From a virus (taxonomy: Duplodnaviria; Caudoviricetes), in IMG/VR virus record IMGVR_UViG_3300015214_000029, positions 21,756-85,755 of that record: a stretch of DNA of 64,000 bases; one strand, written 5' to 3'. The notes beneath the pieces are model-generated. The model ran no database searches and was not told the DNA's origin. It was given only the letters and a program-made list of their open reading frames with translations. The first letter of the stretch is position 1; each line of letters opens with the position of its first letter. Shown piece after piece: positions 1 through 61,781 of the stretch. Made by a program: the position numbers and the translations under genes.

Positions 1-96
1 GTAATCGCCAGCGGTTTCGGGGTAACCATTGCCATCTTCCTGCTGATTACACTCCGGGCAGTGCGGGGTTCTGTCAACCCAGAGGATAATACCTAA

Positions 97-16576: not shown

Positions 16577-16692
16577 GACACGTAAACGACGCTCGGCTTT
16601 GGACTCGCCAAAACCAGGCGTCGCTTTTTCTCTCCCAGGAAGTCGATGTTCACGGTTACTTGTAGTGGTAATGGCTATTCGGTTGTCACGAG

Positions 16693-16765
16693 CACGTCCG
16701 GTAGGAGTCGAACCTACAGTCCCCGCTTTTGGAGAGCGGTGCGTTGCCTGTTACGCTACGGACGT
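16693..16765 (-). tRNA. trnW: tRNA-Trp (CCA)
   Basis: Full cloverleaf: ACGTCCG acceptor (A1-U72, G73), D arm GCGT-AACAGGCA-ACGC, anticodon arm CCGCT-CTCCAAA-AGCGG, T arm GTAGG-TTCGACT-CCTAC; no encoded CCA end. Confidence 0.95.
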
Positions 16766-18021: not shown

Positions 18022-18948
18022 TCAAAGTTCCATCGCATCCGCCACCAGGGGCGCATCCAGGCTGGTGTCCAGGTACCGCTCCGTCACCGCCATCGAGGTG
18101 TGCCCCAGCATGAACTGGGCCTGCTTCATGTCGTCGGTGCGGTTGTAGAGCAGTGTTGCTGCCGAGCGGCGCAGGTCGTGAACCGAAATCTGGGGCAGAC
18201 CTGCCGCCCCCGCCCGCTTCTTGACCACCCGCCACAGCCCATTAGTCGTGATCTGCCCGTTCCACTCATCCGAGGGGGTCAGTGAGACGAAGATGCGCTC
18301 ACTGTCCCCTGCCGGGCGCAGGGCGTGCCATGTCTCAAGCAGTGCAACAGCATAGCTGGCAACCGGTACTGTGCGTACCCGGTGGTGCTTACCCTGGATG
18401 TCCTCAAACTGGGCGACGATCTTGCCCCCCATCTCCCGTTTGCGGAACTGGCCCCAGACCAGTTCCGCAACCTCAAAGACGCGCAACCCACAAGCCAGGA
18501 AGACTGCCAGGATCGCCCGGTCGCGCACCACCAGCCGCTCATCCTCGCCCTCTTCAACCGGGAAGTTAAGCAACTGCCGCATCCCTGCGGCATCCAGCCA
18601 GTTGCCCCGCTTCTGCCCGCGCACCGGAATGCTCTCGACACTCTCTGCTTTACTCGCCAGGTCTGCCGGGATCAGGCCCTCTCGCGCAGCTACCCGGAAG
18701 AACTTGCGGATAGCCGACAGCTTCTTGTTGATGGTAGCAGGCTTGTAGCCCCGCTCGCGCAGCGACCGCTTGTACGCGCCCACTGCCTGTGCCGGGGACT
18801 GAACCCCCTGCCCCGCCGAGTGTGCCAGGAACTTACGGATCTCATCCTCGTACACCTGAGCCGTCTTCTCAGAGTTGGTCTCAGCGACCACCATCTGGAT
18901 GACTGACTCAACCTGGTCATTGAACTGGGTCTTAACTATCAGGGACAT
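18022..18948 (-). CDS. Tyrosine recombinase/integrase
   Basis: Catalytic set intact: GLR, K in KHHRVR, HDLRR, LGH, RY; N-terminal SAM-like domain. Confidence 0.92.
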   Translation of the reverse strand: MSLIVKTQFNDQVESVIQMVVAETNSEKTAQVYEDEIRKFLAHSAGQGVQSPAQAVGAYKRSLRERGYKPATINKKLSAIRKFFRVAAREGLIPADLASKAESVESIPVRGQKRGNWLDAAGMRQLLNFPVEEGEDERLVVRDRAILAVFLACGLRVFEVAELVWGQFRKREMGGKIVAQFEDIQGKHHRVRTVPVASYAVALLETWHALRPAGDSERIFVSLTPSDEWNGQITTNGLWRVVKKRAGAAGLPQISVHDLRRSAATLLYNRTDDMKQAQFMLGHTSMAVTERYLDTSLDAPLVADAMEL

Positions 18949-21182: not shown

Positions 21183-21873
21183 AGGCCTGCTCCCATATGT
21201 ATGTGCGCAATTCGTCAAGGTCCGCTACCCGGTCCTCGTCATGCGAGACGTGGGGAGCCCACAGATCCATCGGGTCATAGTAGTCCCAGTCCAGCCAGTC
21301 GAACGGGTAACGCTGTGGGTCGAGCTTGTCCCACAGGTACATGGCATAAGCCGTCGCATCTGTCTTCTTGTTCCCGGTAAAGCTCGGGCGCTTACCCAGT
21401 ACCCAGACCCGTGTCGGGGGGTGGTTGTGCCACAGACCCCTCATCCGGTCCTGTCCTTCCAGGAACCCGAGGCGCAGCAGGTACAAGACATGGCGACGAC
21501 TCTGGCGCAACGCCTGGCGCAAAAACGCCTCAGCGAACTTGTAAGGTGGGTTACCCATAACAATGTCAAAGGACTGGTCCGGCAGCGTACTCTTGGTGTA
21601 GTCCTGGATCAGCCAGTCCCCGTAGAACGGGGGGCGCTCGGTAAGGTAGTATTCCAGCCCCGTAACCTGGGACTGGGGCCATCGCTTCCGGGCTGCAAAG
21701 CCCCAGACCCCCAGCCCCGCGCCGGGGTCCAGGATCTTCAGCACCCGGCTGTGCCCATCCAGGGCCCGGGTATCCACCTGCTCCAGCACAGCCTCAATCA
21801 GCCCGATTGGAGTCGGGTAGAAGTCCCGGGCATCCCGGGGGCGCATCTTCTTCTCAGTCATGATGATCGGCAT
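21136..21873 (-). CDS. N6-adenine DNA methyltransferase (phage type)
   Basis: DFYPTP, ILDPGAGLG, NPPY, LLRLGFLEG, RPSF motifs. Confidence 0.88.
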   Translation of the reverse strand: MPIIMTEKKMRPRDARDFYPTPIGLIEAVLEQVDTRALDGHSRVLKILDPGAGLGVWGFAARKRWPQSQVTGLEYYLTERPPFYGDWLIQDYTKSTLPDQSFDIVMGNPPYKFAEAFLRQALRQSRRHVLYLLRLGFLEGQDRMRGLWHNHPPTRVWVLGKRPSFTGNKKTDATAYAMYLWDKLDPQRYPFDWLDWDYYDPMDLWAPHVSHDEDRVADLDELRTYIWEQAYEYTGQRRPQEAAVR

Positions 21874-39503: not shown

Positions 39504-40571
39504 CTAGGCGCTGCCCAGCAGTTCGTACTGCTTGAACCGCTTGGCAGCAGAGCCCTCAAGCTGGGGACCGTAGTTGTCCGTATTGGAGTAGCCCACACCC
39601 TGTAGGATGTGAAGGACGCTCCAGAAGTGACCGCGCAGGGGGTACCACTTGCCCCGGCCCAGGTCGATCTGGTTGGTCTTCAGGTCGATGATGACGGTGC
39701 GGGGGTTCTCCCGCGCCCGGCGACGCCACTCATCCATCTTCAGGATGTATGCCTGGGCCACGTCCTCGGCGGCTGCACGGGGCAGGTAGTTGGTGTTGAA
39801 GTACCCGCTCAGGTCTACCTGCTCGATGTGCCGCTCCCAGTGGTTGCGGTCGATGTGGCGGTGATTAAACCAGGGATTTATCTTGCGCAGCTTCTCTCGC
39901 ACTGCCCGCTCGTAGTGGGGTAGGTTGACGCTGGCGAACTGGTCACGGTCCTGGTCTTTCGGCATAATCATGGCGGCATACCTGCCATCGAACAGCCAGA
40001 GCATGATACCCGCCCCGGTGTAGACCCCATCGTAAGGCTGGGCGAACACCCGGACCTTGCCCATCGGTAGCAGACCGTCGATCCACTGCTGCCGAATGAT
40101 GTGGAGTGACAGCCCGGGCCGCTGCACACTGAACTCGGCACCACCCAGGGTCTCGACCCTGGGTTCCTTCTTGGAGCCCGGCCCGTACTCGGGCGGGTCA
40201 CAGGTCAGGGTCAGGGCGTGCTCGGGAGTGCAGCGCAGATTAACCGCGTCATTGAGTCCGGCCCCTACGGTGCGCAGGGCCTTGCGCAGCGCCAGTGCAT
40301 CCGCCACAAACAGGGGGATGAGCGGGCACGTCTTGAACTGGGCCTCGACCCTCTGTTCGGCGTCCTTAGTCCAGTCCGACTCCGGCGAGGGCACGCCCAG
40401 TTCCTCGACCAGCGCCTCGACCTGGTCGTCGTCCAGTTCGTCCCCGACCACACCGTAAGCATGGGTATCTGTCATGACGAACACGGCAGGTTGCCCGCTG
40501 ATCTTGAACTGGAGTAGCAGCCTGGGGTTCTTGATCTTACGCAGGTACTTGAGATCTTCCTCGTACAGCAT
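39504..40571 (-). CDS. Hypothetical early protein
   Basis: Start MLYEE after GAGAGGAGTC RBS; promoter TTGACA-N17-TACCCT at 40658-40686. Confidence 0.65.
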   Translation of the reverse strand: MLYEEDLKYLRKIKNPRLLLQFKISGQPAVFVMTDTHAYGVVGDELDDDQVEALVEELGVPSPESDWTKDAEQRVEAQFKTCPLIPLFVADALALRKALRTVGAGLNDAVNLRCTPEHALTLTCDPPEYGPGSKKEPRVETLGGAEFSVQRPGLSLHIIRQQWIDGLLPMGKVRVFAQPYDGVYTGAGIMLWLFDGRYAAMIMPKDQDRDQFASVNLPHYERAVREKLRKINPWFNHRHIDRNHWERHIEQVDLSGYFNTNYLPRAAAEDVAQAYILKMDEWRRRARENPRTVIIDLKTNQIDLGRGKWYPLRGHFWSVLHILQGVGYSNTDNYGPQLEGSAAKRFKQYELLGSA

Positions 40572-40696
40572 GTTAGACTCCTCTCTAGTCCTCTCTCCCG
40601 GGCCGGGCACCCCGCAGGGCACCCGACCGCTTGAGAGAGGAGTTCTACCCTACCTTTAGGGTATTCGAAAACTTACGAGTTGTCAAGCAACTCATA

Positions 40697-40781
40697 GGTG
40701 GAGATGCCGGGTGTCGAACCCGGGTCCGCAAGCTTGCCGGGTTGCCCCGGGTCATTGCCCACGTCGAAGCCAGTCATCCCC
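40697..40781 (-). ncRNA. Minimal tmRNA-like RNA (tRNA-like domain only)
   Basis: GGGGATG/CATCTCC acceptor with G3-U70, A73-CC; stemless D loop ACTGGCTTCGAC; GGAC then T arm CCGGG-TTCGACA-CCCGG; mRNA-like domain replaced by CCGGG-GCAA-CCCGG. Confidence 0.85.
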
Positions 40782-40824
40782 AGATGGCTGGAGCCCACCT
40801 CAGCGGGCTCCAGGGGTCTGTAGA

Positions 40825-41445
40825 TCACTTGCTGTACACCACCGTCACGCTCTGCCAGTTCCAGTAGGCTTCCTTGAGGTGCAGCCCTTTGATACGGGCG
40901 ATCAGGGCCTCGACCTGCTGGGTATTGCGCAGCCGGTACCAGTTGCGGGTGCCGTCCTCACGTACCAGGGTGATGCGGGTCATCCGGTAGGACGTGTCCT
41001 CTGTCAGATCCAGCCGGACTTCCAGCCCGACCAGTGGGGACACCGTGAAGTTGTCCCGGTAGGTCTTGCACTGGGCATACACGAACCCGTTGTCATCTTC
41101 CCACAGGTCGATGTACTCCACGTTGTAAAGCTCGGGAAAGATGTGCCAGTCCGAGATATCCATGAACTCGGTACGCCCCGGCACCCAACGGAAGTTGAGG
41201 CACCGGCCTTCGTCATACAGGGCCCGCTCTTCATCCTCGTCTACCCAGTCGGGCAGGTTGTCCGGGTCCCAGCCGTTGAACTGGCAATACTCCCGCCAGT
41301 TCTGTTCCTCTACCTCGGGGTCGTCATATGGCTCGGGGTCGTTCAGCCAGGCATACACCTCGTAAGGCGTACACCCCTCGAACTTGCCCGGACCCCGGGC
41401 GATCCCCTCATAGTGGGCACGGACCGCAGCCTTGTGTGTACTCAT
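40825..41445 (-). CDS. Hypothetical early protein
   Basis: 206 aa, acidic; RBS motif. Confidence 0.6.
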   Translation of the reverse strand: MSTHKAAVRAHYEGIARGPGKFEGCTPYEVYAWLNDPEPYDDPEVEEQNWREYCQFNGWDPDNLPDWVDEDEERALYDEGRCLNFRWVPGRTEFMDISDWHIFPELYNVEYIDLWEDDNGFVYAQCKTYRDNFTVSPLVGLEVRLDLTEDTSYRMTRITLVREDGTRNWYRLRNTQQVEALIARIKGLHLKEAYWNWQSVTVVYSK

Positions 41446-46339: not shown

Positions 46340-46552
46340 TCAGCCGATAAATGGGCACCCGAATCGACGGTTTGGACATCCGGTGCCCGCCGCTACCTTG
46401 AACCGGGCTCCCGCCGCTGTGGGGCAGCGGTGCCAAACATACCCCGCACGCGGGGCAGTGCGGCCCGTATAGAGGTCGCCCCGGTAGTGTTCTACCGGCA
46501 GGACCCAGCCCGCGCCCAGGGCGCTCTGATATACGGCTACGATACGACGCAT
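46340..46552 (-). CDS. Hypothetical early protein
   Basis: Between hairpins, RBS motif. Confidence 0.5.
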   Translation of the reverse strand: MRRIVAVYQSALGAGWVLPVEHYRGDLYTGRTAPRAGYVWHRCPTAAGARFKVAAGTGCPNRRFGCPFIG

Positions 46553-46624
46553 TGTCTGACTCCTCTCATATGCTCATTGACACAGGTAAGGGCACCCTAC
46601 ACAGGGTGCCCTACCCTGTGGCAA

Positions 46625-53607: not shown

Positions 53608-53689
53608 GTTGAGGCGGGTCGAAGGTTCTGGGTTACCCAACTTACAAGAGATGGTCACGCCCCAGGCCGCACACTTATCCGCCTTTAAC
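53608..53689 (+). ncRNA. Y RNA-like 1 (short)
   Basis: Terminal stem GGCGGGTCG...CTTATCCGCC; just downstream of TTGACA-N16-TATGCT promoter; upstream of Ro60. Confidence 0.75.
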
Positions 53690-53700
53690 AACTGAGCGTG

Positions 53701-53830
53701 TAGAGCGGGTCGCTGGGTGACGGTAATCGGAAACTTGGGTTCGACCCCCAGGCGGCTGGCGTGGCAGAGGTCGCGCTACCGACCGTCCTTAATGGACAAT
53801 AATCTCGTTGCTCGATCTTTATCCGCTCTA
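53701..53830 (+). ncRNA. Y RNA-like 2 (YrlA type, with T-arm)
   Basis: TAGAGCGGGTCG...TTTATCCGCTCTA terminal stem; TGGG-TTCGACC-CCCA T-arm. Confidence 0.75.
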
Positions 53831-53847
53831 ATCTTTACTAACTGTAT

Positions 53848-53989
53848 AGCGGCGGGTCGCTGTAGAACGGTTATCCACTGTAACTGGGAAGGTTGCGGGT
53901 TCGAATCCCGCCCGGACCCCTTACATGGGTCCGGTAGCTCAACAGGCAGAGCGTCTAAAAAACTCGTTCTCGATCACTTATCCGCCGCT
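53848..53989 (+). ncRNA. yrlA: Y RNA-like 3 (YrlA, permuted tRNA-like domain)
   Basis: T arm GCGGG-TTCGAAT-CCCGC, closed acceptor CCGGACCC-CTTACAT-GGGTCCGG, D arm GCTC-AACAGGCA-GAGC inside AGCGGCGGGTCG...CTTATCCGCCGCT stem. Confidence 0.88.
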
Positions 53990-53999
53990 CCGACAATAA

Positions 54000-54076
54000 A
54001 AAGGAACCGGGTCGAAGGCTGTCGGTTATCTACTGAGAAGAGAACCCCGATAACCACAAACCTATCCGGTTCCTTT
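54000..54076 (+). ncRNA. Y RNA-like 4 (short)
   Basis: AAAGGAACCGGGTCG...CCTATCCGGTTCCTTT terminal stem; GGTTATC/GATAACC inner stem. Confidence 0.75.
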
Positions 54077-54100
54077 CGTTTGTCGGGGAAAGGGAGAGCC

Positions 54101-55699
54101 ATGCCATACGGTAAGCATTTCAACCTTCGTCAGACCCCCCAGGACCAGCCCATTCCGGGCAGCGGTCAGGTCAAGAACTCGGCAGGCGGGTATGCGTGGC
54201 AGATCTCTCCCTGGGAGCGGCTGACTCGCTTCCTGATCCTGGGTACCGAGGGGGGCACGTACTACGCCTCGGAGCGGGCCTTGACCATCGAGAACGCAGA
54301 GAACGTCTGGGCCTGCCTGAACCTCGACCCCAAGCGGGTGGTGGATGAGACCATTGCCGTCTCAGACGCGGGACGTGCGCCCAAGAACTCTCCGGCGCTC
54401 TTCGTCATGGCGATGGCGTGCAGTGAGGTCTTCGTGAGTGACCAAGTGCTGCGCGAGTATGCGCTCGACCGGCTGGAGCAGGTGGCCCGCACGCCGACCC
54501 ACCTCTTTGAGTTCCTGGGCTACGTGCTCGGGTTCCGCAAGTGGGGGCGTGGGCTGCGTAACGCCGTTGCTCGCTGGTATAACGGGCATACACCCGAGAA
54601 CCTGGTCTACCACTTGGTGAAGTATCGCCAGCGGGCGGGCTGGACGCACAGGGACGTGCTGCGCGTGGTTCACCCGACGCCGGTCTCAGAGGCGCACTCG
54701 ACGCTCTATAACTGGGCGATCCGGGGCGAGGCAGACATAGACAAGCTGGGCGACCAGGCTCTCCTGGTGCTGGAAGGCTATCACCGGGCACAGGCGGCGA
54801 CGACCCCAGAGCGGTGGGTTGAGATCATCAAGGCGTACAACCTGCCGCGCGAGGCGCTGCCGACCCAGGCCCTCTCGCACCCGCAGGTGTGGGCGGCGCT
54901 GCTGGAGACCGGGATGCCGGTCATGGCATTGACCCGTAACCTCGCCAACCTCGGGCGGAACGGGGTTATCGGCCCGGGCTTGTGGGATACCAACCAGCTG
55001 GTGGTCTCGGCGCTCAGCAATGATGAGGTGATCCGCCGCTCGCGGATGCACCCCATCCACTTCCTGCTGGCGCTGCGCATTTACACGCGGGGCTACAACA
55101 ACCGGGGTCGCTGGGTGCCCGAGCCCAGCATCCGGGATGCGCTGGAAGGGGCGTACTACAAGGCGTTCGGTAATATCGATCCGACCGGCAAGCGCATCGT
55201 CATCGGCCTGGATGTGTCGGGCTCAATGGACTACATGACCATTCCGGGGCTGGAAGCGTTCACGGCTCGGGATGGCGCAGTAGCTATGGCGATGGCAACG
55301 GTGCGCACGGAGCCCTACACGGCTGTCTATGCTTTTGGGTCGAGGCTGCAAAAGCTGGGCATCGGCAAGAACGACCGGCTGAGTACCGTGCTCAAGAAGA
55401 CCAAGATGAACTTTGGCGGGACGGATGCGGCACTGCCCATCCTCCAGGCGCTCCAGGACCGGACGCAGGTGGATGCTTTTATCACCTACACGGACAACGA
55501 GACCTGGGCAGGGGCGGTTCATCCGGCACAGGCGCTCCAGCGGTACCGGGAAGAGATGGGCATCCCGGCGAAGCTGATCGTGGTTGGCATGACTTCAACC
55601 GGCTTCAGCATCGCAGACCCGAACGATGCGGGGATGCTGGATGTCGTGGGGTTCGATGCGAACACCCCCCAGGCGATCTCGGAGTTCATTCGCCTGTAG
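54101..55699 (+). CDS. rsr: Ro60/Rsr (TROVE plus vWA) RNA-binding protein
   Basis: VKNSAGGY, RFLILGTEGGTYY, KYRQRAGWTHRDVLR, MALTRNLANL, LDVSGSM, GGTDAALP, YTDNETW. Confidence 0.95.
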   Translation: MPYGKHFNLRQTPQDQPIPGSGQVKNSAGGYAWQISPWERLTRFLILGTEGGTYYASERALTIENAENVWACLNLDPKRVVDETIAVSDAGRAPKNSPALFVMAMACSEVFVSDQVLREYALDRLEQVARTPTHLFEFLGYVLGFRKWGRGLRNAVARWYNGHTPENLVYHLVKYRQRAGWTHRDVLRVVHPTPVSEAHSTLYNWAIRGEADIDKLGDQALLVLEGYHRAQAATTPERWVEIIKAYNLPREALPTQALSHPQVWAALLETGMPVMALTRNLANLGRNGVIGPGLWDTNQLVVSALSNDEVIRRSRMHPIHFLLALRIYTRGYNNRGRWVPEPSIRDALEGAYYKAFGNIDPTGKRIVIGLDVSGSMDYMTIPGLEAFTARDGAVAMAMATVRTEPYTAVYAFGSRLQKLGIGKNDRLSTVLKKTKMNFGGTDAALPILQALQDRTQVDAFITYTDNETWAGAVHPAQALQRYREEMGIPAKLIVVGMTSTGFSIADPNDAGMLDVVGFDANTPQAISEFIRL

Positions 55700-59215: not shown

Positions 59216-59986
59216 ATGAGCGTCACTGAGGAACGATTCCGCCAGGGGACCGGCGAGAGGTACCTTAAAAACGGAAAGGTGCGCTGTCAGGCAGTGGCGA
59301 AGGGCAAGCTGCGCAAGCTGCGCGAGGAAACGGGCAACAAGGATCTCACGTCCGAGGAAGCCTGGCCCGCCGCGCAGTGCGAGTGGCCCGCCGAGGAAGG
59401 GGCGTTCGCCTGTGAGCTTCACGGGGGCGCGAGCACGACTCTCCAGCCTAAGTCCCTGCTGGACTTCATGCCGATGGACCTGCGGGAGATGGCCCGGGAG
59501 TTCGAACAGAGCCCGGACATTACCACCAACCAGAGGGACACCATCATTGCCCTCATCGTGCGCAATTCTCAACTTTTTGAAGAACTGTATGATGCACTGA
59601 GTACCAAGTCCGTCAAGCAGATCCACAAGTACCTGGATCTGATCGAGAGCGGCGACATCGTTGTGGGGACCCGGGGTATCCGGGAGATCTTGAAGGCAGC
59701 TTACGACGAGCGGGAAACCTGGAACGAGTTTCGGGAGAACAGCAAGACGATTGGCAAGCTCATCGAGACCCAACTCAAGGTCTTTGACAAGATGCAGCAG
59801 ATCGCTACAGTGGACCAGGTGCTCGCCCTGCTGGAACGGCTTAACGACATCATGCAGTCGGTGGTGACCCGGTATATTACAGATCCCGACCTGCGCAACA
59901 CGATCATGCTGGAGTTCTCGCGCCAGGCGCGGGACAAGGTCGGCATGGCTGGACCTGGGGTGGATGTGTCCCGGCTAAATGGCTAA
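59216..59986 (+). CDS. Putative terminase small subunit
   Basis: RCQA...C..HGGAS motif; directly upstream of the large subunit. Confidence 0.65.
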   Translation: MSVTEERFRQGTGERYLKNGKVRCQAVAKGKLRKLREETGNKDLTSEEAWPAAQCEWPAEEGAFACELHGGASTTLQPKSLLDFMPMDLREMAREFEQSPDITTNQRDTIIALIVRNSQLFEELYDALSTKSVKQIHKYLDLIESGDIVVGTRGIREILKAAYDERETWNEFRENSKTIGKLIETQLKVFDKMQQIATVDQVLALLERLNDIMQSVVTRYITDPDLRNTIMLEFSRQARDKVGMAGPGVDVSRLNG

Positions 59987-61781
59987 TTCGGATTACGATC
60001 TCGAAGGTTTCTTACGCGCAGCCAACGAGCACAAGAGTGTCTACCAGCAGGCACTAGACCGGATGGCGGAGCGGTTTGAGAAGGTGGTGAACCCGCCTGA
60101 ACCCATCCCGCCATCCCAGTGGTTGCAGACTTACTTCTATGTGCCGCGCCCGCGTAACCCTAAGACCGGCGACGTGCTGCCGCCTGGTCCTATTGTGCTG
60201 GAAGATCACCAGGCAGCAATCATAGACGAGGCGCTGAGCCGGGACGAGGGGGGCCGCTTCCGTTATGTAACCATCCTCTACTCTGCGCCCAAGAAGTCGG
60301 GCAAGTCGGCGCTGTCGGCGGGCGTTGCCAAGTACATGGGGCATACCAACGATTACGGCAGTATCTACTGCCTGGCAAACGATGGTAAGCAGTCGGATGA
60401 CCGGCTCTATCAGCCCATCGTCAAGAGCTACAGCCTGCATCGGCGTCTGAACGGACCCTTTGCCGGGGTGCGGCCTAAGTTGGTCGAGGTGACAATCCCG
60501 GATACCCACTCTAAGATCGAAGCCGTACCCTGCGACGCGGCGGGCGAGGCGGGTTCCGAGCCGCTGGCGACGTTCTGGTCTGAAGTCTGGGGATATGACA
60601 GTGAAGCCAAGCGGCGGTTGTTCACCGAGATGACGGTGCCGCCAACTCTGTATGGATATGCGATCCGCTGGATCGAGAGCTATGCAGGGTTCATCGGGCA
60701 GTCCGACCTGCTCTGGGAGTTGTATGAGACCGGGGTTAAACAGGGGACGCCCCATCCGGGGTTCAAGCATCTGGTGGGCATTGACGGCGAGCCGGTGGTC
60801 TACGTGAACGAGGCGGCGCGGATGTTCGTTTACTGGGATACCAAGCCGCGCATGGCCTGGCAGACCGACGACTACTACGAGGCAGAGGCCAGGATCTTGC
60901 TGCCCTCTGAGTTCCAGCGCATTCACCGGAACCAGTGGCAGGCCCCCTCGGGTAGCTTTGTGGAACCCGAGATGTGGGATCGCTGCGCGGACCCGCACCT
61001 GCCGCCCCTGGTGGACAAGCGGGTGCCTTGCGTGATCGCCATTGACGCGGCAGTCTCGAAGGATTGTGCAGCGATCCTGCTGCTGACCCGTGACCCGAAC
61101 TACCCCGAGACGGATGTTGCCATTCGCAAGGCCCGGATCTTCCGACCGTCTGAGGGGCGCAAGCTGAACCTGGAAAATACGATTGGGCGCACCCTGCGCA
61201 ACTGGCTGGGCGAGCACAACGTGGTCTGTGTGGTCTACGATGAGTTCCAGATGGCGCATCTCATCCAGAACTACTCGCGGGGCAAGGTCATCATCGACGG
61301 TGAGGAACTGCGGGACATCCCCGAAGATAAGCGGGATGCCTACATTATGGAACAGCAGCGGGTGGTACAGGTCTGGTACGAGGCCTTTGGGCAGCAGAAC
61401 CCCCGGGCTATCGCGGACAAGCAGTTGCATGACCTGATCACCAACCGCCAGGTCCACTACAACCCGCACGACTTGAACGAGGACATCGGGGCCCGGGGGG
61501 ACCAGGAGACGGTTACCAAGCACATCAAGCAGGCGGGGACACACATCCAGGGTGACAACAAGCTACGCCTGGCGAAGCTCTCGCCCTCGGCTCACATCGA
61601 CGGCGCGGTGGCCCTGGCGATGGGCGCTCACCAGGTGCTCAAGCTGAACATGGACAATGAAGAATTTGACGTGGACAATGCTGCCCAGCAGTTGGCTCGG
61701 GGCGACATTACCTTTGAAGATTTCCAGACGATTATGAGTCAGCGCCGGGCGCGATTGGTGAGGGATACCAACGATGACTAA
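59979..61781 (+). CDS. terL: Terminase large subunit
   Basis: APKKSGKS Walker A, WSEVW Walker B variant, AIDAAVSKD and HIDGAVAL nuclease motifs. Confidence 0.92.
   Translation: MANSDYDLEGFLRAANEHKSVYQQALDRMAERFEKVVNPPEPIPPSQWLQTYFYVPRPRNPKTGDVLPPGPIVLEDHQAAIIDEALSRDEGGRFRYVTILYSAPKKSGKSALSAGVAKYMGHTNDYGSIYCLANDGKQSDDRLYQPIVKSYSLHRRLNGPFAGVRPKLVEVTIPDTHSKIEAVPCDAAGEAGSEPLATFWSEVWGYDSEAKRRLFTEMTVPPTLYGYAIRWIESYAGFIGQSDLLWELYETGVKQGTPHPGFKHLVGIDGEPVVYVNEAARMFVYWDTKPRMAWQTDDYYEAEARILLPSEFQRIHRNQWQAPSGSFVEPEMWDRCADPHLPPLVDKRVPCVIAIDAAVSKDCAAILLLTRDPNYPETDVAIRKARIFRPSEGRKLNLENTIGRTLRNWLGEHNVVCVVYDEFQMAHLIQNYSRGKVIIDGEELRDIPEDKRDAYIMEQQRVVQVWYEAFGQQNPRAIADKQLHDLITNRQVHYNPHDLNEDIGARGDQETVTKHIKQAGTHIQGDNKLRLAKLSPSAHIDGAVALAMGAHQVLKLNMDNEEFDVDNAAQQLARGDITFEDFQTIMSQRRARLVRDTNDD

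Follow-up and report, generated by a model that had tools for sequence, protein, structure and literature searches.

A phage tmRNA gene reduced to the tRNA-like domain, and the class of viral RNAs to which it belongs

The window analysed here is a stretch of 64,000 nucleotides (positions 21,756 to 85,755) of an 85,755-bp IMG/VR virus record, IMGVR_UViG_3300015214_000029, which has direct terminal repeats, is rated 100% complete and contains genes for TerL, a portal and a tape-measure protein. At window positions 40697-40781 of the minus strand lies a gene of 85 bases for a tag-less tmRNA, in the following mini-tmRNA, whose letters are those quoted in an earlier note on this DNA. The Rfam tmRNA model RF00023 matched 40696-40781 of this strand with 70.0 bits (E 3.2e-25; gathering score, 47 bits) over model positions 1-374, with both ends matched, and this was the sole tmRNA match of Rfam across the whole 85,755-bp genome. 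Comparison with the Rfam tmRNA and mt-tmRNA models left RF00023 as the best match in its clan. An identity as mt-tmRNA was rejected because cmscan, which retains only the best match among overlapping families of one clan, reported RF00023 at the site together with a weak tmRNA_permuted match (31 bits), and not mt-tmRNA. ARAGORN called no tmRNA at 40697-40781, and the locus had no blastn match among cultured phages. A 27-nt string covering T arm and acceptor occurred once in the window compared to zero expected from shuffles, and the isolated RNA folded modestly better than shuffled sequence (z -1.75). All 86 nt were identical in a second, independent assembly (Logan), with 4 substitutions in about 215 flanking nucleotides, which in this near-identical strain are too few sequence differences to count as evidence of constraint.

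The RNA contains a complete tRNA-like domain (TLD; Table 1, numbered from G1 at window position 40781). Its D loop has the GG and UUCGAC typical of tmRNA and falls one base short of the Rfam consensus; the D loop, the GGAC junction and the T arm with its UUCRA loop were aligned with posterior probabilities mostly given as an asterisk. The acceptor stem, helix 2a and T stem are fully paired. Sequence, Rfam alignment and pairing thus bear out the tmRNA hallmarks listed in the note (G3-U70, A73, stemless D loop, helix 2a and GGAC). A76 is not encoded. The note had also described a GNRA-capped hairpin in place of the mRNA-like domain and pseudoknots. Indeed, such a hairpin occupies this place, with 298 inner RF00023 positions (message and pseudoknots) reduced to 13 nt in the Rfam alignment and no tag frame, and the 23-nt middle segment containing it folds with -9.9 kcal/mol (RNAfold). 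No mRNA-like domain with resume codon, tag ORF and stop codon was found between GAC and GGAC, a gap of 35 nt that is mostly paired, no stop codon occurs there in the frame holding GCA, and pseudoknots PK1-PK4 are not present. A hidden, very short tag was considered as well; the sole in-frame stop (GGG-CAA-UGA) lies partly within helix 2a and UAA/UGA is not conserved among related RNAs, making such a tag implausible. Without resume codon or tag frame, the mini-tmRNA is unable to carry out trans-translation. Judged by its sequence, the 85-base element is a real phage gene for the alanine-accepting tRNA-like domain of tmRNA, devoid of tag frame and pseudoknots.

Table 1 Features of the mini-tmRNA locus and of the integrase region in the 64,000-nucleotide window.
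Feature	Window positions	RNA positions	Strand	Basis or remark
TLD-only (tag-less) tmRNA gene	40696..40781		-	Rfam RF00023, 70 bits, E 3e-25, model positions 1-374
Acceptor stem GGGGAUG / CAUCUCC, 7 bp, G3.U70	40775..40781 pairs with 40700-40706	1-7 with 76-82	-	Sequence
Stemless D loop A-CUGGC-UUCGAC	40763..40774	8-19	-	Rfam alignment
Helix 2a GUGGGC / GCUUGC	40757..40762 pairs with 40728-40733	20-25 with 49-54	-	6/6 paired, three G.U
Internal loop AAUGAC		26-31	-	
Inner hairpin CCGGG-GCAA-CCCGG (GNRA tetraloop, 5 bp)	40737..40750	32-45	-	RNAfold and Rfam alignment gap
Junction GGAC		55-58	-	Rfam alignment
T arm CCGGG-UUCGACA-CCCGG		59-75	-	Rfam alignment
GGAC junction and T arm together	40707..40727		-	Rfam alignment; single occurrence in window
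Discriminator A73, then CC, then U	40699; 40698-40697; 40696	83-86	-	Sequence
Upstream ORF, 206 aa, no known family	40825..41445		-	Stop codon 43 nt before RNA
11-bp hairpin between upstream ORF stop codon and RNA 5' end	40788..40813		-	-22.9 kcal/mol, z -3.3
9-bp hairpin directly 3' of RNA, then AGUUUUCG	40666..40696		-	-9.7 kcal/mol, z -3.1
Very stable hairpin before ribosome-binding site of next gene	40589..40641		-	-47.1 kcal/mol, z -4.2
Downstream ORF, 355 aa, no known family	39504..40571		-	
Tyrosine integrase gene	18022..18948		-	PF00589, 89 bits
Full tRNA-Trp(CCA) gene	16692..16765		-	No encoded CCA end

The proteins encoded on either side of the gene belong to no Pfam or PHROG family and have no relatives in IMG/VR; a search of a 5.8-billion protein set returned one 99%-identical copy only, and the ESM Atlas gave no usable match. 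The strong hairpin noted earlier upstream of the RNA was recovered with an 11-bp stem, and the predicted fold of the hairpin directly downstream resembles a weak terminator or an element for 3' processing. Through an imperfect inverted repeat of 29 nt with 76% complementarity (40768-40796 / 40805-40833), the first 14 nt of the mini-tmRNA can base-pair with a region made up of the leader and the end of the upstream ORF, and in the minimum-energy fold of a 181-nt precursor the 5' acceptor strand is paired with the leader. This repeat could form a duplex of the type processed by RNase III, or could have arisen by chance. We found no antisense partner RNA nearby, the only complementarity being that between leader and 5' strand. 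A promoter scan detected no minus-strand site for the mini-tmRNA; a TTGACA-17-TACCCT downstream of it has a weak -10 hexamer. In the absence of any recognisable promoter-like site for the RNA itself, the simplest assumption is that the mini-tmRNA is co-transcribed with the 206-aa ORF, as is probably the case, and released by RNase P.

Alternatively, the element could be mainly a tRNA-like processing signal, at which RNase P / RNase Z would split the upstream and downstream messages. Flanking hairpins would then shield the ends created by cleavage, and the RNA set free would be without a role of its own. The RNA follows a stop codon at 43 nt, is bracketed by three stable hairpins, lacks a promoter-like site on its strand and has a leader able to pair with its 5' strand, all in line with such a signal. 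For processing alone, however, an ordinary tRNA or a simple hairpin would be enough, and G3.U70, the GAC/GGAC junction, helix 2a and the tmRNA-type D loop are not needed for it but are kept throughout the class described below. We therefore consider this explanation extremely improbable.

Compared to standard one-piece bacterial tmRNA (RF00023), the mini-tmRNA shares a complete TLD, comprising alanine identity elements, stemless D loop, T arm and the initial part of helix 2, but is without the resume codon, tag frame, stop codon and all pseudoknots (about 300 nt). Since these message parts are missing, it cannot switch a ribosome onto a message. Two TLD halves closed by a tetraloop are also found in the Thermus fragments of crystal structure 2CZJ, where 25 nt of the 5' part and 34 nt of the 3' part, joined through a UUCG loop, bind SmpB (PMC3985003). 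Those fragments are artificial and carry no CCA, whereas the natural mini-tmRNA keeps the acceptor end and has a longer helix 2a with an internal loop. Tag-less tmRNAs are furthermore retained by jakobid mitochondria and some plastids, for which a rescue role has been suggested (PMC11915505; PMC3985003). These RNAs, including the approximately 65-bp genes of Mallomonadaceae plastids, resemble the mini-tmRNA in containing little beyond the TLD and in their presumed SmpB partner. In contrast, they are organelle genes served by a nucleus-encoded SmpB and represent the only tmRNA of their compartment, whereas a phage mini-tmRNA would act beside the full tmRNA of the host, making competition possible.

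The closest counterpart is a phage RNA that was already published. The earlier note was not aware of any phage version lacking the tag domain; this statement of novelty was wrong, as Hudson, Lau and Williams named 'Mycobacterium phage DS6A (TLD only)' in 2014 and proposed SmpB titration (PMC4131195), and a tmRNA database paper of 2025 restated the DS6A case and added plastid genes without a CDS (PMC11915505). The kind is also common in viral contigs, as described below. We located the DS6A gene (tmRNA Website tmID 11587) at JN698994 28478-28560(+). It is phage-borne, 83 nt long compared to 85-86 nt here, has G3.U70 and A73, and joins 5' and 3' TLD halves by helix 2a and a small hairpin with no tag frame; phage DS6A likewise has a tyrosine integrase and no annotated SmpB. 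The two sequences are unrelated beyond the tmRNA consensus, however, and so are the phages. DS6A scored 43 bits, just under the Rfam threshold, with deviant GGUCGAC and GGCAC motifs, whereas the copy described here is canonical (70 bits); its inner part shows the common GACGAAAACCGCACGCGG pattern instead of a GNRA hairpin; and its host is Mycobacterium, while that of the present phage is probably a member of the Chloroflexota.

Searches of viral and metagenomic sequences placed both RNAs in a larger class. With strict patterns, in which both tmRNA ends and 15-45 nt between them were required, 3 and then 30 viral contigs (one locus in both scans) and 117 metagenome stretches were obtained, representing roughly 90 distinct RNAs of 65-96 nt. 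The present RNA matches the class pattern of TLD halves joined by up to about 45 nt, helix 2a and a small hairpin in a viral genome; its middle segment of 23 nt exceeds the 16-19 nt of most members. A core pattern (UUCGAC, 15-45 nt, GGAC, T arm), which left the acceptor stem free to avoid circularity, matched at least 120 viral stretches in IMG/VR, and among the 120 matches listed, 110 formed at least six of the seven acceptor pairs together with the T stem. Of 229 non-identical loci, only 29 had any ARAGORN call at the gene, 10 of the 29 as tmRNA and mostly under a wrong name, whereas 24 of 26 other carrier records exceeded the Rfam tmRNA threshold. On this evidence, TLD-only mini-tmRNAs are common in uncultured phages, mostly missed by ARAGORN but detected by Rfam, and the phage RNA studied here belongs to a widespread, barely studied class with DS6A as its published prototype. 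As a single finding it repeats a published kind and is a new member rather than a new kind; as a sequence it is clean and canonical, and it comes from a complete genome.

Across 90 distinct sequences among the core-pattern matches listed, pair 3:70 was G.U in 88 and the discriminator was A in 89, with G-C at 1:72 (89/90), 2:71 (88/90) and 7:66 (87/90). In contrast, pairs 4:69, 5:68 and 6:67 interchanged freely among G-C, C-G, A-U and U-A. Helix 2a covaried in the same set, with 75 distinct 6-mers, all Watson-Crick types at each position and a mean pairing of 5.5 of 6, compared to 2.5 in controls in which strands were swapped between sequences. A single mutation suffices to turn a G.U pair into a Watson-Crick pair. 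The persistence of G3.U70 and A73 in RNAs with covarying pairs 4-6 and helix 2a speaks for selection on alanine charging and not on SmpB binding alone, and selection for alanine identity as such is well supported by these sequences across the class. Only 26 of the 90 members among the matches listed encode a full CCA; as most members lack it and the tRNA-Trp of the present phage is likewise without an encoded CCA end, addition by the host is expected.

The ends of the mini-tmRNA bear on its origin. Among the bacterial matches listed, its 3' half is common to tmRNAs of many phyla, and its 5' half most resembles tmRNAs from metagenome-assembled genomes of Chloroflexia and Anaerolineae (2-3 edits in 24 nt), which share the D loop shortened by one base. 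The best named homologues of a Ro60 protein encoded by the phage are also from Chloroflexota (Bellilinea, 56% identity; Promineifilaceae; Anaerolineae). Since tmRNA ends and Ro60 homologues both point to Chloroflexota, a host from this phylum is likely; no prophage relatives of the portal were found in 401 Chloroflexota genomes. The T loop UUCGACA occurred in none of the 120 bacterial ssrA matches listed, indicating that the mini-tmRNA was not newly copied from any host gene sampled, and the same 120 matches yielded no attB candidate.

A resemblance to Chloroflexota tmRNA ends over the first 24 nt would also suit a non-functional leftover, either an internally deleted, decaying phage ssrA or an integration-related ssrA fragment (attP). 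tmRNA genes are common integration sites and the phage encodes a tyrosine integrase. An attP would, however, be expected to carry only the 3' part of ssrA, whereas this gene has the two halves, linked in register through a stable hairpin, and the integrase gene is 22 kb distant. Together with the lack of a T-loop match among the 120 bacterial 3' ends listed, this led us to reject an attP fragment, a possibility that the note had allowed for. Against decay in general stand the intact pairs of acceptor stem, helix 2a and T stem, and an architecture that recurs with covariation in hundreds of unrelated viral contigs. Because neither a remnant nor a processing signal would preserve in-register halves, G3.U70, a tmRNA-type D loop and helix 2a, both roles are unlikely, and we regard the leftover explanation as very improbable.

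Trans-translation is the main bacterial ribosome-rescue pathway and a drug target, and phages with a stripped-down tmRNA probably tamper with it. From the intact structure, the class membership and the selection on alanine identity elements documented in the sequences, we infer the following course. The mini-tmRNA would be transcribed together with the upstream orphan gene and cleaved by RNase P at G1, its 3' end would be trimmed and completed by the CCA-adding enzyme of the host, host AlaRS would charge it with alanine through G3.U70 and A73, and host SmpB and EF-Tu would bind it. Dependence on the host is in line with the gene content: neither an SmpB nor an RtcB gene was found in the phage, its tRNA-Trp also lacks an encoded CCA, and 26 further carriers, of which 12 are at least 90% complete, likewise yielded no SmpB gene. 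On balance we favour, by a modest degree of confidence, a functional phage TLD-only tmRNA that most likely competes with host tmRNA for SmpB and stalled ribosomes, which would lower SsrA tagging and degradation during infection.

This competitor role is ranked first since, by analogy, it has the sole experimental precedent. In the passage of PMC4131195 that cites Mao et al. 2009, a molecule similar to the DS6A RNA is said to have strongly inhibited tmRNA in E. coli, perhaps via SmpB titration, and the inhibition held 'whether or not chargeable'. The sponge idea of the earlier note is thus the SmpB-titration hypothesis already published there (PMC4131195). If the inhibition is as that passage describes it, SmpB titration on its own would leave the strict conservation of G3.U70 and A73 unexplained. 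Two folding results also speak against the favoured reading, namely the pairing of the 5' acceptor strand with the leader in the precursor and the only modest folding advantage of the isolated RNA over shuffled sequence.

By sequence, this retention appears to fit at least as well with rescue without tagging. Here, the alanyl-mini-tmRNA, together with host SmpB and EF-Tu, would enter non-stop ribosomes and take over the nascent chain, adding one alanine and no tag; the peptidyl-RNA would leave by drop-off and Pth, or through an ArfB-type release factor, so that ribosomes are freed and truncated phage proteins escape SsrA-directed proteolysis. The alanine identity elements are near-invariant among the matches listed while neighbouring pairs vary, indicating that charging matters, and the T loop and D-loop GG needed for tRNA behaviour on the ribosome are intact. 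A complete 123.6-kb virus (L173, record G414) moreover carries both a mini-tmRNA (46486-46567, 65 bits) and a full-length tmRNA (77588-77979; 392 nt, 94 bits), which argues that the mini-tmRNA has a role of its own. We know of no system in which a release mechanism for peptidyl-mini-tmRNA has been shown, which weighs against rescue. While the rescue role suggested for the tag-less tmRNAs of jakobid mitochondria and some plastids (PMC11915505, PMC3985003) is favourable, the review of Himeno counts loss of the tag region against bacterial-type trans-translation (PMC3985003), and the sole experiment on such a molecule cited in the above passage of PMC4131195 gave inhibition, not rescue. Rescue without tagging is therefore, in our estimate, rather unlikely.

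A broader possibility, which we put forward tentatively, is that these are charged RNAs acting on the ribosome, providing either a phage rescue route without tagging or an active block of tagging, and are not passive SmpB sponges. It is based on the retention of G3.U70 and A73, the lack of a phage SmpB and the presence of mini- and full-length tmRNA in one phage. If true, phage nascent chains would be spared SsrA-directed proteolysis, and rescue could continue while host defences cut mRNAs. With the present copy, the system would also reach a new lineage of phages, which probably infect Chloroflexota and have a Ro60 / Y RNA module as well. The census yields concrete, testable predictions for these mechanisms, and what could be new lies at the level of the class: its abundance, the selection for charging, the placement in head modules and the co-occurrence with full-length tmRNA.

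The position of the gene differs between phages. In the present genome it lies within a long minus-strand block containing small orphan ORFs and, after them, UvrD, primase, DnaB, PolA, a DNA methylase, the tyrosine integrase and tRNA-Trp, while TerL, portal and tail genes are on the plus strand. From this gene order, expression from an early or middle region is plausible. In other groups, the mini-tmRNA is frequently found in the head-gene module, between the genes for prohead protease and HK97 major capsid protein or beside the portal gene; these hallmark genes mark the carriers as genuine phages. Such a placement is indicative of late expression at a high level, in contrast to the position in this phage. 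Head-module examples include loci L202, L131 and L241 and their clusters; counted over loci, the gene lay just upstream of the HK97 major capsid gene in 22, downstream of an XkdF-type prohead protease in 19 and beside the portal gene in 19. A further arrangement was seen in marine loci (L016, L017, L165, L266), where near-identical mini-tmRNAs of 80 nt (GGGGTGGATCTGGTTTCGACGGGGATTAAAACCTGCAATGGTA...) occur in dozens of marine metagenome contigs, preceded on the same strand by three conserved orphan genes whose clusters are present in 40, 36 and 31 loci.

By sequence comparison, the phage itself is a new lineage. Its PolA has best matches of at most 27.6% identity among cultured phages and no close relatives in IMG/VR, its portal has no relatives in IMG/VR or among cultured phages, and the only relative found was the near-identical strain in the Logan assembly. 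The tyrosine integrase gene is 1.3 kb from the tRNA-Trp gene, and the phage may be temperate with its attP around these two genes. A 90-nt 'tRNA-Gly' called by ARAGORN at window 61006-61095 (+) falls within the ORF of the large terminase (59979-61781), is not matched by the Rfam tRNA model and is probably a false call.

The Ro60 orthologue (TROVE and vWA domains) is encoded in the region at window 53613-55699 (+), with its ATG at 54101 and not a GTG at 53717. Directly upstream of it are four tandem units that start with CGGGTCG (53615, 53706, 53853 and 54008) and end in a CTTATCCGCC-like motif. Unit 3 (53864-53973) scored 42.4 bits against Rfam YrlA, under the threshold of 69, and units 2 and 3 contain a T-arm-like GGGTTCGANNCCC. 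In its sequence organisation the array looks like a short-long-long-short array of Y RNAs; together with the mini-tmRNA, it would give this phage two kinds of tRNA-mimicking RNA.
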